Of a stretch of DNA of 39,607 nucleotides, positions 8,431-11,915 are shown piece after piece. Position 1 is the stretch's first letter. Each line of letters opens with the position of its first letter. The notes under the pieces are model-generated. The model worked only from the letters and a program-made list of their open reading frames with translations. It ran no database searches and was not told the origin of the DNA. The stretch lies in the sequence record SRR22947725_6258, one strand, 5' to 3'. The translations under genes and the position numbers were made by a program.

Positions 8431-8632
8431 GGGCGAGACAGTCCATGGACCTTCTTTATTAGCTTGGCTGAATTATTTCAATGGTGAGCCCCAAAAAACC
8501 CTGCAAAAAAAGTGGTTGCCGACCATGAGGTACAAAAGTTATTTGAGAACGCGCCCCCTAGCTTGACCGCACGCTGGGAGAAGCAGGGCCCAGAAACCAC
8601 TGGCCCCACGAGCAGGGCTGGTGGGGGGAAAG

Positions 8633-8704
8633 TGCCCCTGGAGGGAGTCGAACCCCCAACCCTTTCCTTAGGACGGAACTGCTCTTCCATTGAGCTACAG
8701 AGGC
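8633..8704 (-). tRNA. tRNA-Arg(CCT)
   Basis: GCCTCTGTAGCTCAATGGAAGAGCAGTTCCGT-CCT-AAGGAAAGGGTTGGGGGTTCGACTCCCTCCAGGGGCA; cloverleaf with TTCGA T-loop; CCA not encoded. Confidence 0.95.
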
Positions 8705-8755: not shown

Positions 8756-9973
8756 ATGCGAGTGAAGCTTTTTTTAGCAACTGTGGGGTCTCGAGGGGAT
8801 AACGAACCCTTCAAAGCCCTGGCCCTCGAAGCTGCAGCCGCGGGTCACGAAGTTTTTTTCGCCCACACCAACGACATTCCCTCGCAGCCGCAGGCCCCCT
8901 ACACCGATGTCGAGCTCCCCGGATCGATGGGGGAGGTGATTGCTGGTCAAGGGGTTTCTGTCTTGAAGGCGCTGAAGAATTATTCCTCCGTGATGAAACC
9001 CCTGATGGACGGTATTCTTGAAGAAACGACACAGCAGATTCTTGCTCTTAAGCCAGACGTCGTGGTGTATCACCCGAAGGTTCTCACCGCGGCCACCGCC
9101 GCCCACGCCGTGGGCGGGATTGCGATTCGTGCCGAAATGGTTCCGATACTGAATCCGACAGACGAGTTTGCCCCCGTCGGAATGCCGGCCTGGATTCCCG
9201 TCTCTTGGAATAAGGCGAGTTACCGAATCATTGATGCCTCACTGTCTGCGTTTGATGGCCAGGCCAAAAAGTTGGCCCGACGCCTGGGGGTGATTTCCAC
9301 CCAACCTGACCTCACCTTTGTCCCCGTGAGCCCCAGCATCATCTCTCCTCCCAAGGATTGGCCCGATGACGTCGTGATGACGGGTTCATGGAACACACCA
9401 GGGCACGGACAGCTCGATGAGGAACTCGCGCAGTTCCTTGAGTTTGGGGAGGTTCTTTACGCAGGGTTTGGTTCCATGAAGGACTCTCGCGGAGTTGCGC
9501 GCGCCGACGCTATTGTCCAGGCTGCGCGGTCTCTAGGGATGAAGACGCTGATGGTGACGGGATGGGGCGGACTTGTTCCAGGCCCTACCGATCATCTTGC
9601 CCCCGACATTTTGGTGAGAGAGTCCGTTCCCCACACCGAGGTATTGCCCCACTGCAAGGTGGCCATCCACCACGGAGGCGCTGGCACTCTCCACGCGATG
9701 CTGCGCGCGGGTGTTCCCAGCGTCATCATGCCTTTCCTCGCCGATCAACCGTGGTGGGCGAGGCATCTCCACCAGCAAAAATTGGGACCAGCAGGTCTTT
9801 CCCGCACGACAAAAACGCCCTCGGTTATCGCAGCCTCTCTGACGGCAGCGCTTTCCTATGAAGGGGTGACGAAACTCGCCGGGCTAAAAATGGCCACCGA
9901 GGACGGTCTCGCCAGAGCGGTAAGCGTCATCGAAGAAGCGGAAGCGGGCACCCACCCTCTGCGACCTGCCTAA
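8756..9973 (+). CDS. GT1 / GT28-N glycosyltransferase (sterol glucosyltransferase-like)
   Basis: GSRGDNEPF, YAGFGSM, IHHGGAGT, PFLADQPWWA; GGAGG SD. Confidence 0.9.
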   Translation: MRVKLFLATVGSRGDNEPFKALALEAAAAGHEVFFAHTNDIPSQPQAPYTDVELPGSMGEVIAGQGVSVLKALKNYSSVMKPLMDGILEETTQQILALKPDVVVYHPKVLTAATAAHAVGGIAIRAEMVPILNPTDEFAPVGMPAWIPVSWNKASYRIIDASLSAFDGQAKKLARRLGVISTQPDLTFVPVSPSIISPPKDWPDDVVMTGSWNTPGHGQLDEELAQFLEFGEVLYAGFGSMKDSRGVARADAIVQAARSLGMKTLMVTGWGGLVPGPTDHLAPDILVRESVPHTEVLPHCKVAIHHGGAGTLHAMLRAGVPSVIMPFLADQPWWARHLHQQKLGPAGLSRTTKTPSVIAASLTAALSYEGVTKLAGLKMATEDGLARAVSVIEEAEAGTHPLRPA

Positions 9974-10513
9974 CTAGGCAGCCTGAGCGAGGTAGCCCTC
10001 CCAGTGCGGCTGGGGACGCTCAATTCCCCGGACCAGCCATGCTGTTCCAAAAGGAGTTTTAGGGACAGAGTGCATTCGCCAGCCCATTTCTTGCGGCGTC
10101 CTATCGCTCTTGATGTTGTTGCAGGAAAGACAACAGGCCACCAAGTTCTCCCACTCGTCTTTCCCGCCGCGCGAGCGAGGCACAACGTGATCAATGGTGG
10201 TGGCCGACCGGCCACAGTAAGCGCATCTGTTGGAGTCTCGGCGCAATACCCCCCGGCGCGAAACAGGAATATGGCGATTGTGAGGCATCTTGACATATCG
10301 GGTGAGGACGATTACGGAGGGTCTCTCCCACGAACCATCCACACTTCTCACCGGGTAGCCTTGATCACTTTCGACCACTATCGCTCGACCGTTCATCACC
10401 AGCACGAGCGCTCGGCGAAACGACACCACGGACAGTGGCTCATATCCCGCGTTCAACACCAGCGTCCTGCTCGCTCCCCGCTCGGGGGCCACTACTTCAG
10501 CGACGCTACTCAT
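9974..10513 (-). CDS. HNH endonuclease (McrA-like, Rv2469c-type)
   Basis: TLVLNAGYEPL, RRDSNRCAYCG, TIDHVVPRSRGG..EWENLVACCLSCNNIK. Confidence 0.93.
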   Translation of the reverse strand: MSSVAEVVAPERGASRTLVLNAGYEPLSVVSFRRALVLVMNGRAIVVESDQGYPVRSVDGSWERPSVIVLTRYVKMPHNRHIPVSRRGVLRRDSNRCAYCGRSATTIDHVVPRSRGGKDEWENLVACCLSCNNIKSDRTPQEMGWRMHSVPKTPFGTAWLVRGIERPQPHWEGYLAQAA

Positions 10514-10677
10514 GCCCAGGCCCCGTTAACGCAAAAGACACCATCGAAAATCGATGGTGTCGAGAAATATCGCGACGTGGGACATCCCACAGAAGGTCGG
10601 ATGGCGAACAATATCCGAAAGTGAGCGCGCGCGTCTCGCAGTAGACGAGCTCTGTGCCTCATGATCCCACCCCTCAT
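10510..10677 (-). other. Candidate leader ORF (50-55 aa) / structured 5' leader of the HNH gene
   Basis: MRGGI-MRHRARLLRDARAHFRILFAIRPSVGCPTSRYFSTPSIFDGVFCVNGAWA*; stop overlaps HNH start (ATGA); TAACCT -10 at 10700-10705. Confidence 0.4.
10533..10561 (-). terminator. Intrinsic terminator/attenuator hairpin just upstream of the HNH gene
   Basis: Minus strand GACACCATCGA-TTT-TCGATGGTGTC (11-bp perfect stem) followed by TTTT. Confidence 0.7.
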
Positions 10678-10802
10678 TTCTTACGGGACGAACTCTCTTA
10701 GGTTATCCCTCCTCCCCCAACGTGCAATACCGCGGCACGCCGGGGCGAGCCCGCCACCCACAGCCCCGAATGGGTCAGAACCGGAACCTCTAGAATTGAG
10801 AC

Positions 10803-11915
10803 ATGGCGCCCCTTGAAATCCCCCAAGAATTACTCCCCGCAGATGGCCGGTTTGGCGCTGGTCCCTCCCGGGTTTCTCCCGCACAGCTTCAGCATCTGCT
10901 CGCCCACGCCGACATTGTGGGGACGTCTCACCGCCAAGCCCCGGTCAAAGACCTGGTTGCTCGGGTCCAGGGGATGCTGGCCGATTTTTTTTCCCTACCC
11001 GGGGGCTATGAAGTTGTTTTAGGAAATGGTGGGTCCACCGCTTTCTGGGACGTCTCAGCAGCCAGCCTTGCCCGCACTCGCAGCGCCCACCTGAGTTTTG
11101 GTGAATTTGGCAGCAAGTGTGTCAGCGCCCACACCACGCCGTGGCTCGAGAGTCCTGACGTGGTGTCCAGCGATCCGGGCACCAGGGGCGCACTGAGCGC
11201 AATCGCGGGAGTCGACCTCTATGCCTGGCCCCACAACGAAACCTCCACCGGGGTGTCGGCGCCGGTCAAGCGAGTGGCGGGCGCTGATTCCGATGCGCTC
11301 ATGGTGGTCGATGCCACCAGTGCTGCCGGTGGCATCGACTGTGACGTTCGCGAGAGTGACGTGTATTACTTTGCTCCCCAGAAGAACTTTGCCAGCGATG
11401 GCGGGTTGTGGTTCGCCCTGATGTCCCCTGCGGCTATTGCCCGGGCAGCAGAGATTGCCGACACGGATCGATACATTCCTGATTTCTTATCCCTCACCCA
11501 GGCGATCGATAATTCCAGGCTCCACCAAACTCTTAATACCCCCGCTCTCACAACCCTGCTACTGATGGAAGCACAGCTGGAATGGATGCTCAGTATCGGT
11601 GGTCTCACTGCCACCGCGGCGCACTGCGCTGCCTCTTCCGCTGTGCTCTATGACTGGGCTGACTCGCGAAGCGATGTCACCGCGTTTGTTCGAAACCCTG
11701 ACCACCGCTCTCCCGTGGTGGTGACGCTGGATATCGACGAAGCAATTGACGCCACAGCCATCACCTCCGTGCTTCGCGCAAATGGAATCGTCGACACAGA
11801 GCCCTACCGCAAACTGGGTCGAAACCAGATTCGCGTTGCCACTTTCGCTGGCGTTCCCCACTCAGATGTGGAGAAGCTGATTTCTTCTCTCGACTACGTC
11901 CTGGAAAATCTTTAG
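10803..11915 (+). CDS. serC: Phosphoserine aminotransferase
   Basis: DGRFGAGPS, GTSHRQ, HNETSTGV, DATSAAG, YYFAPQKNF (PLP lysine), YRKLGRNQIR. TAGAAT-N6-ATG. Confidence 0.96.
   Translation: MAPLEIPQELLPADGRFGAGPSRVSPAQLQHLLAHADIVGTSHRQAPVKDLVARVQGMLADFFSLPGGYEVVLGNGGSTAFWDVSAASLARTRSAHLSFGEFGSKCVSAHTTPWLESPDVVSSDPGTRGALSAIAGVDLYAWPHNETSTGVSAPVKRVAGADSDALMVVDATSAAGGIDCDVRESDVYYFAPQKNFASDGGLWFALMSPAAIARAAEIADTDRYIPDFLSLTQAIDNSRLHQTLNTPALTTLLLMEAQLEWMLSIGGLTATAAHCAASSAVLYDWADSRSDVTAFVRNPDHRSPVVVTLDIDEAIDATAITSVLRANGIVDTEPYRKLGRNQIRVATFAGVPHSDVEKLISSLDYVLENL

Follow-up and report, generated by a model that had tools for sequence, protein, structure and literature searches.

A conserved leader whose short reading frame extends into an intrinsic terminator: a candidate ribosome-mediated attenuator of an HNH endonuclease gene in Microbacteriaceae

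Why is the gene for a small HNH endonuclease preceded by a structured leader in which a short open reading frame (sORF) runs straight through an apparent intrinsic terminator? The question is raised by SRR22947725_6258, a stretch of 39,607 nt (the whole of which is called the window here) whose closest named relatives belong to Pontimonas in the Microbacteriaceae. The leader lies between the HNH gene (9974..10513, minus strand) and a divergent phosphoserine transaminase gene (10803..11915, plus strand; NCBIfam serC_3), and its coordinates are read on the minus strand. An earlier note, made from these letters, had proposed either ribosome-dependent attenuation of a potentially toxic nuclease or a discrete RNA co-expressed with it as an sRNA-nuclease module. 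The comparative data favour attenuation, and the leader is probably a ribosome-mediated transcription attenuator of the coupling type, similar to that of pyrBI, to which translational coupling has been added in Pontimonas.

The elements listed in the earlier note, namely a -10 TAACCT, several hairpins, twin GTGGGAT copies, an 11-bp terminator with a U tract, an open reading frame (ORF) through this terminator and an ATGA overlap, are all present. The -10-like hexamer TAACCT (10700..10705, minus strand), read from the sequence, is of the actinobacterial TAnnnT type; its column in 73 aligned leaders has the consensus TACCCT, the A, C and T of which are each at least 90% conserved, and a consensus scan for sigma-70-type promoters found none at the leader. 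The Shine-Dalgarno (SD)-like sequence GAGGGGTGGGA (10665..10675, minus strand) includes the first GTGGGAT copy (10664-10670). The sORF itself (10510..10662, minus strand) begins at the ATG at 10662 behind the SD GAGGGGTGGG and has 50 codons and a TGA, coding for MRHRARLLRDARAHFRILFAIRPSVGC...VNGAWA. The upstream ORF of the earlier note is present and overlaps the HNH start as described, but comparison with relatives makes a start at 10662 more likely than one at the alternative in-frame ATG at 10677 (ORF 10510..10677, 55 aa). Across the aligned leaders the purine-rich SD stands at constant spacing ahead of the start codon.

Inside the sORF, also on the minus strand, follow the hairpin P1, CGTCT-ACTGCG-AGACG (10632..10647, arms 10647-10643 and 10636-10632), which forms the tip of a long 5' hairpin, and a genus-conserved block, GCGCGCTCACTTTCGGATA (10612..10630), which codes for RAHFRI and holds an anti-SD-like CUUUC and a rare ATA codon. 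The hairpin P2, TCGGAT/ATCCGA (10597..10618, arms 10618-10613 and 10602-10597), is seen both in the sequence and in the fold, as is the segment 10573..10590, which carries the second GTGGGAT (10590-10584), GTCCCAC (10583-10577) and the flanking CGAC/GTCG. The intrinsic terminator GACACCATCGA-TTT-TCGATGGTGTC (10532..10561, minus strand; stem 10561-10537, then TTTTG) has a stem of 11 pairs, six of them G-C, a 3-nt loop and a UUUUG tail, and lies within the sORF. The TGA of the sORF overlaps the HNH ATG (10513-10511) in the sequence ATGA (10510..10513, minus strand). The stem ends 23 nt before this ATG. Since this gap leaves no room for a separate promoter, any HNH mRNA of Pontimonas must contain the terminator. 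The minimum free energy (MFE) fold of the 184-nt leader has -70 kcal/mol, which corresponds to z = -2.24 and is equalled by 5 of 200 shuffles. Taken alone this one sequence is suggestive, and the weight lies with conservation.

For this comparison the best 80 of 600 confirmed stretches from the search for relatives were used, and from 30 + 80 loci the DNA that precedes the HNH protein's conserved RTLVLN core was taken. Of these, 107 loci had 400 nt or more of upstream sequence, and among them 75 leaders (74 distinct) were curated by having one SD-led ORF of at least 20 codons that starts 92-112 nt ahead of a terminator stem. A strict detector was also run on 98 distinct Microbacteriaceae loci, with 490 shuffled upstream regions and the 98 reverse complements as controls; its criteria were a terminator at a distance of 30-190 nt ahead of the HNH core and an SD-led ORF beginning 85-130 nt upstream and open as far as the terminator. 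The terminator was detected in 82/98 real loci, 128/490 shuffled regions and 14/98 reverse complements. When the SD-led ORF open up to the terminator was added, the counts were 76/98, 19/490 and 3/98, and with the P1 hairpin as well they were 57/98, 5/490 and 1/98. The architecture is thus real and conserved across the Microbacteriaceae and not a local accident. The earlier note had set conservation in relatives as its check beforehand, and both structure and peptide turned out to be conserved; its proviso that the hairpin could be the leftover terminator of a deleted upstream gene falls away, for the hairpin is retained upstream of HNH genes across the family. The element is single-copy and adjoins the HNH gene, with a BLAST match at one place each in 25 of 38 genomes of the genus, and the genomes that give no match belong to a more divergent subgroup or are incomplete.

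The position of the sORF stop relative to the terminator bears on how such a leader may work. In all 74 curated leaders the stop never lies more than 2 nt ahead of the stem, and the distance from sORF start to stem is 92-112 nt with a median of 100. Outside Pontimonas the stop falls in the terminator loop in 29 of 53 leaders, abuts the stem (2 nt before to 2 nt inside) in 11 and lies in the 3' arm in one; the ORF runs through the terminator in the other 12, eight of which end 32 nt inside the HNH gene. This placement is specific to the frame: a stop triplet occurs between the stem start and the loop in the sORF frame in 40/53 of these leaders, vs 7/53 in each other frame. Over all curated leaders the other two frames meet earlier stops in 30/74 and 28/74. 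In 21/21 leaders of Pontimonas the ORF continues past the terminator to a stop that overlaps the HNH start (15 ATGA, 3 GTGA, 2 TGATG and 1 TAATG); both Leifsonia leaders likewise have an ATGA overlap with the HNH start. The sORF stop has apparently moved in evolution, lying against the stem, in the loop or over the start of the next gene, and has kept the terminator within reach of a ribosome.

The relevant precedent comes from Escherichia coli. There, a translating ribosome nearly abolishes intrinsic termination, with less than 10% termination when the stop codon is 5 bp before the stem vs about 90% when it is 28 bp before, and this repression is lost once translation is uncoupled (PMC4824070). 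The same source describes the pyrBI attenuator terminator as sitting inside its own leader ORF. By analogy, the stop geometry of the HNH leaders is that in which the lead ribosome of E. coli suppresses an intrinsic terminator (PMC4824070). The leader also has the general features of the attenuator class: an SD-led leader ORF on the same strand, a terminator between this ORF's start and the structural gene, and an ORF end within ribosome reach of that terminator.

We therefore propose the following course of events for the window. Transcription would start a few bases past TAACCT, and the RNA would offer the SD and AUG (10662) of the 50-codon ORF, with initiation possible only while both are free. 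The terminator would emerge about 100 nt further on, inside the leader ORF and shortly ahead of the HNH start. A ribosome loaded early and following close behind the polymerase would occupy or melt the 5' arm of the terminator, so acting as the antiterminator and giving read-through. In Pontimonas the same ribosome would then stop at the UGA that overlaps the HNH AUG (AUGA), and HNH translation would be coupled to termination at the sORF stop. If the leader ORF were left untranslated, the terminator would fold, transcription would end and HNH would not be made. Failed initiation, with SD and AUG locked in a long hairpin with codons ~13-24, may be one route to this state; alternatively, a ribosome could stall on the conserved peptide with its front still upstream of the stem and leave the terminator free. 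Either step would be the regulated one.

The structures that this course of events calls on have been kept in evolution. The terminator covaries strongly, 10 of 12 stem pairs being paired in 53/53 non-Pontimonas leaders with pair types such as GC32/AU17/GU4 and UG21/UA21/CG11; among the 21 Pontimonas leaders the stem sequences differ, and 5 of the 11 pairs form in all of them. P1 was defined by hand on an ungapped alignment of 51 sequences, because RNAalifold on the mixed 73-sequence alignment took the wrong P1 register, and the groups were folded separately. This hairpin covers codons ~6-12 and reads GCATCC-N7-GGATGC elsewhere, compared with CGTCT/AGACG in the window. In other genera 93% of P1 positions are paired over six pairs in 50 distinct sequences, with four pairs changed on both sides; none of 500 shuffles reached the observed values, and slid controls gave 28-49% pairing vs 80%. 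The P1 loop has the conserved form nnnCCnn with two invariant C columns (51 sequences), and a flanking GCGCGC is also conserved. Some of the paired changes swap two amino acids at once (Ile/Asp to Thr/Gly), and in Pontimonas the 5' arm of P1 lies in another codon register, from which we conclude that P1 is kept as RNA. At the position of P2 other Pontimonas leaders have a hairpin of different sequence, GGTCTC-CAC-GAGGCC.

The long hairpin, in which the SD and AUG of the sORF pair with codons ~13-24 and P1 forms the tip, was found in single-sequence folds. Its partner sequences vary by lineage, for example AUGGUCGAG/UUCGACCA and AUGUCGAUG/CGUCGACAU, and cognate 5' and 3' strands bind at a mean of -20.9 kcal/mol vs -17.0 for non-cognate and -17.4 (standard deviation 4.2) for shuffled strands. 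Pairing takes up 2 nt or more of the AUG in 57/74 leaders and joins the SD region to downstream codons of the sORF in 68/74. For the 21 leaders of Pontimonas, RNAalifold predicts pairing between CUUUC and the SD purines. In the window's own MFE fold, GUCCCAC pairs at long range with the SD-proximal GUGGGAU and so encloses the sORF SD and AUG. The earlier note had stated that both GTGGGAT copies could pair with GTCCCAC, which holds, but it is the SD-proximal and not the adjacent copy that the fold uses. Its competition between GTCG and CGAC for the 5' arm of the terminator is not supported: it amounts to 4 bp, and no conserved antiterminator was recognised in the relatives. A further small hairpin is possible at the 5' end of most leaders, in the stretch from the -10 to the SD (10676-10693 in the window, minus strand), and its 3' arm enters the SD; examples seen by eye in the alignment are CCCGTC...GACGGG in Microbacterium and CCCTCGA...TCGAGGG in Pseudolysinimonas.

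The sORF is constrained as a peptide too. As a measure of coding, codons that differ by a single base were scored for synonymous change, both in the sORF frame and in frames +1 and +2. The synonymous fraction is 0.644 for 12 Pontimonas sequences, vs 0.167 and 0.229 in frames +1 and +2, and 0.449 for 22 Microbacterium-type sequences, vs 0.224 and 0.269. In codons 12 and 14 of the Microbacterium type, positions one and two are invariant and the third is free. Judging from these substitutions, the leader peptide is under purifying selection within genera. Across genera the peptides align free of gaps over the first ~22 codons, and in the 21 Pontimonas leaders the sORF starts 13-14 codons ahead of a conserved HFRI. 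The conserved part comprises about residues 7-28, and the C-terminal part follows the terminator sequence: between Pontimonas subgroups it is wholly different (TPSxFDGVFCV vs TVPFFV). With this C-terminal half tracking the terminator and a length range of 31-96 aa, conservation does not extend over the whole peptide.

Several observations weigh against attenuation by a leader-translating ribosome, or reduce the force of the evidence for it. The 74/74 open frames arise partly by construction, since the curated set was chosen for an SD-led ORF, and the other two frames are also open to the terminator in 44/74 and 46/74 leaders of this DNA of 59-70% G+C. A simple consensus scan gave 2 terminator-like sites vs a shuffle mean of 1.2, which is no excess. 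Outside the curated set stand 32 of the 107 loci, made up of 7 non-family loci, several Pontimonas duplicates and leaders that the patterns picked ambiguously; the strict detector covered the family members among them. The relatives are not independent samples, so the shuffle-based contrasts overstate significance. Over the whole family (51 sequences) the synonymous excess is unclear, with 0.315 in the sORF frame vs 0.221 in frame +1 and 0.395 in frame +2, and the conservation of the peptide is partly due to RNA pairing. An antiterminator common to the 75 leaders was not recognised, nor any shared partner segment, and in 20/75 most of the 5' arm of the terminator is already base-paired in the pre-terminator MFE fold. 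The absence of a run of regulatory codons outside two genera means that no sensed signal can be named.

RNA-library data bear on the question of read-through. One contig of run X2 covers 10123-10631 and one of run X3, from another study, covers 10328-10668; each reaches from the HNH body across the HNH start and the terminator into the sORF, most or all of which it includes. These contigs are consistent with read-through transcripts, although as assembled contigs they carry no ends, strand or level and could stem from DNA carry-over; stretches that no contig covers carry no meaning. At position 10565 (plus strand) the window has A, but runs X1, X2 and X3 and the nearest genome (L001) have G. 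This strain difference lies just 5' of the terminator stem and outside it.

Two other explanations are the main rivals of attenuation. The sORF could encode a functional microprotein, for instance a partner or inhibitor of HNH in the manner of an antitoxin or immunity protein, with the terminator setting the ratio of small protein to nuclease. Purifying selection on the peptide within genera would fit, gene pairs that are co-translated typically show such an ATGA overlap too, incomplete termination between two genes would leave the first product in surplus, and gene callers have called relatives of the sORF in databases, though in only three clusters, two of them named 'hypothetical protein'. 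We regard this as rather unlikely, for conservation is confined to about half of the peptide and its remainder is dictated by the terminator, the length varies threefold, and pairs of amino acids change together to keep P1. Moreover, the sORF belongs to no Pfam or NCBIfam family (Pfam gave none for 8/8 sORFs at E <= 1), its matches in the Atlas, with scores of 0.81-0.83, are below a meaningful level, and at 39 HNH loci of other orders no comparable sORF-terminator leader was seen on reading the upstream regions, on which no detector was run. In many of these 39 loci an opposite-strand gene lies close upstream. The reverse proposal, that the leader is mainly an RNA device which binds a protein or ligand or is released at the terminator as a ~160-nt small RNA, with ORF translation incidental, is improbable to a similar degree. 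The conserved P1 loop with its flanking GCGCGC, the enclosure of SD and AUG by the long hairpin and a second conserved hairpin (P3, see below), which precedes the HNH SD in other genera and also in other orders, would suit such a device, and premature termination would free a discrete RNA. It would leave unexplained the coding-type substitutions in the sORF frame, the frame-specific stop at the terminator and the fixed spacing of SD and start codon. The leader is also single-copy beside HNH and matches no Rfam family: there were no matches at E <= 1 on window 9500-11500, and at gathering score only 2 tRNAs in the window, with 0/11 matches in 20 relatives' loci falling on the leader. The statement of the earlier note that it recognised no named Rfam family is borne out by these scans.

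Two further readings fit the locus less well. A classical attenuator of the trp/his type, sensing the charging of one tRNA, is brought to mind by Gryllotalpicola, whose leader codes for HHRHHLHHVHHF, and by the CRHH repeats coded in Leifsonia, as well as by the rare codons AGG, AGA, CTA and ATA in the window sORF. It is nevertheless very unlikely, given that a codon run is absent from the window, the 21 Pontimonas peptides and most other genera, that no conserved 2:3 antiterminator was recognised, that the stop lies at or past the terminator instead of ahead of an antiterminator, and that HNH is not biosynthetic. ATA makes up 5% of the Ile codons in the long ORFs of the window and occurs within codons 15-20 in 36/74 leaders. 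The idea that it acts as a hungry-codon sensor was set aside, for pairing with the region of the start codon accounts at least in part for its conservation; depending on the lineage, the 'CAU' opposite the start falls in an ATA or in a CAT codon. Least credible of all is a chance ORF beside the functionless leftover terminator of a lost gene. The weak single-sequence statistics (the z-score and the lack of a terminator excess) and the frequency of open frames in G+C-rich DNA would speak for it, but the whole arrangement is conserved over many Microbacteriaceae genera, the terminator covaries and the stop is placed in a frame-specific manner.

How, then, does a coupling-type attenuator at this locus compare with known systems? 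The E. coli pyrBI and pyrE leaders likewise have a leader ORF that runs into or through an intrinsic terminator just ahead of the structural gene (PMC4824070). Unlike those leaders, the HNH leader is not linked to nucleotide pools and shows no obvious U-rich pause sites, for which no search was made; its peptide is itself under selection, a long hairpin buries the leader's SD and AUG, and in Pontimonas and Leifsonia its stop overlaps the start of the regulated gene. The two would have in common that a close-following ribosome blocks the hairpin and that no dedicated antiterminator helix is involved. In the mycobacterial whiB7 leader the state of translation is linked to downstream transcription, and stalling on the upstream ORF promotes read-through via an antiterminator. 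Stalling in the HNH leader is, in contrast to whiB7, predicted to favour termination, no antiterminator was found, and both the regulated gene and the peptide are unrelated. What the two share is an actinobacterial 5' leader with a conserved upstream ORF and an intrinsic terminator (10.1101/2023.06.02.543512; PMC12121999). The trp/his/leu leaders also place an SD-led ORF and an intrinsic terminator ahead of a structural gene, but Pontimonas has neither a regulatory codon run nor recognised 1:2/2:3/3:4 alternative helices, and its stop lies at or after the terminator.

Another comparison is with HEARO/omega-RNA and IscB, where a structured RNA lies directly upstream of an HNH-domain gene, and the HNH domain here does resemble those of IscB and Cas9. 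That similarity is limited to the HNH domain, and membership was rejected: the protein scores 48.8 bits with NF040563 against a cut-off of 175, and the leader has no Rfam match. It also differs in that the protein has 179 aa and no RuvC, the locus is a single-copy chromosomal one and the gene is spread across the class. These same points, namely no HEARO match, a protein of this size with its HNH domain only and a single-copy element, tell against the sRNA-nuclease module of the earlier note.

The arrest peptides SecM, TnaC, SpeFL and the Erm leaders offer a last parallel, being short upstream ORFs conserved at the amino-acid level; the HNH leader peptide has no recognised arrest motif, and RTM...IRR may bear a likeness to SpeFL. 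Going beyond the attenuator proper, we suggest with much reserve that the conserved peptide (..PRDxRAHFRIQVSxRP.. in Pontimonas, ..IRTMDALGRxVLRH.. in Microbacterium) might be an arrest peptide that acts as a sensor. The ribosome might stall on it in response to a metabolite, a metal or translation stress, and the stall might switch this core actinobacterial HNH nuclease through the terminator exactly one ribosome length on and through the AUGA, in which case the variants of Leifsonia and Gryllotalpicola might be lineage-specific re-tunings of this switch. In these genera the RAHFRI or ALGRLVLRH types are replaced by His/Cys-rich peptides, which are the sequence given above in Gryllotalpicola (L095, L110) and CRHHVEACHRHHVVCRHH, with the CRHH repeats, in Leifsonia (L061, L063), and the ORF still runs through the terminator. 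These variants could reflect a His- or metal-related re-tuning, or they could be driven by RNA through CACCAC/GUGGUG pairing. If true, the arrest-peptide reading would add a new nascent-peptide sensor linking the translation machinery's state to a nuclease.

If the attenuator reading is correct, this is an undescribed, family-wide leader-peptide attenuator for the Actinomycetota, a phylum with few such elements known. It would be unusual in that RNA and peptide are both constrained, in that its stop has shifted as described and in its self-sequestering initiation region. The leader would also be a handle on a widespread HNH protein, for the condition that opens it would tell when the cell wants the nuclease. 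As the element is missing from Rfam, such regions currently go unannotated. We found no description of this leader in the literature covered by our search; term look-ups in the comparative papers PMC4833913 and PMC2965389 gave no mention of HNH or endonuclease, and the supplementary leader-gene and attenuator lists of both, which might include the locus, lay outside this search. The name 'Rv2469c' occurred in one unrelated preprint.

The HNH endonuclease (9974..10513, minus strand; 179 aa; Pfam HNH, E = 1.1e-13), which is the proposed regulated gene, has orthologues in 36/41 related genomes. At E <= 1e-30 it is found as a widespread single-copy gene in 163/201 genomes of the class, a tally that takes in the unpublished genomes G046, G054, G063, G071 and G075, and with this distribution its description as a toxic nuclease in the earlier note is unsupported. 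An AlphaFold2 model from a 10-sequence alignment had a mean pLDDT (predicted local distance difference test) of 41.5 and is unusable. In another family of the class, two HNH orthologues (L124, L150) have an apparent long N-terminal extension (MAHRKKGP.. and MAHAKKR..) and a strong SD, and no leader.

Another hairpin, P3, with an AGCC(A/G) loop, lies ~15-25 nt ahead of the HNH ATG and directly upstream of the HNH SD; examples are CCTGGA-AGCCG-TCCAGG and CCCGGCGCG-AGCCA-CGCGCCGGG, and it was seen at loci L035-L110 and at L112, L120, L121, L123, L129, L142 and L143. It occurs in 57/74 non-Pontimonas Microbacteriaceae (shuffles 11/370), in 3/7 loci of other families of the order (shuffles 0/35) and in 7/39 loci of other orders, with stems of up to 9 bp and constant spacing (shuffles 11/195). 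Pontimonas, the window included, has it in 1/27 (shuffles 6/135). P3 looks like an old 5'-untranslated-region element of the HNH gene and, as it is widespread but rare in Pontimonas, the genus of the window would seem to have traded P3 and the SD for translational coupling.

On its downstream side the HNH gene meets, with zero spacer, a convergent glycosyltransferase-like gene (8756..9973, plus strand; Pfam EryCIII-like_C/UDPGT), which ends at 9973, while the HNH stop codon ends at 9974. A tRNA-Arg(CCT) gene (8632-8704, minus strand) follows, as it does downstream of HNH in 10 of 16 relatives' loci checked. A link between this tRNA and the AGG codons of the leader was considered and dropped, because AGG occurs in Pontimonas leaders and in none of the Microbacterium or Pseudolysinimonas leaders read. 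The arrangement is one of conserved synteny. The tRNA-Arg gene comes nearest in L019, where it directly follows HNH at 37 nt past the stop; in the window the glycosyltransferase-like gene separates the two.

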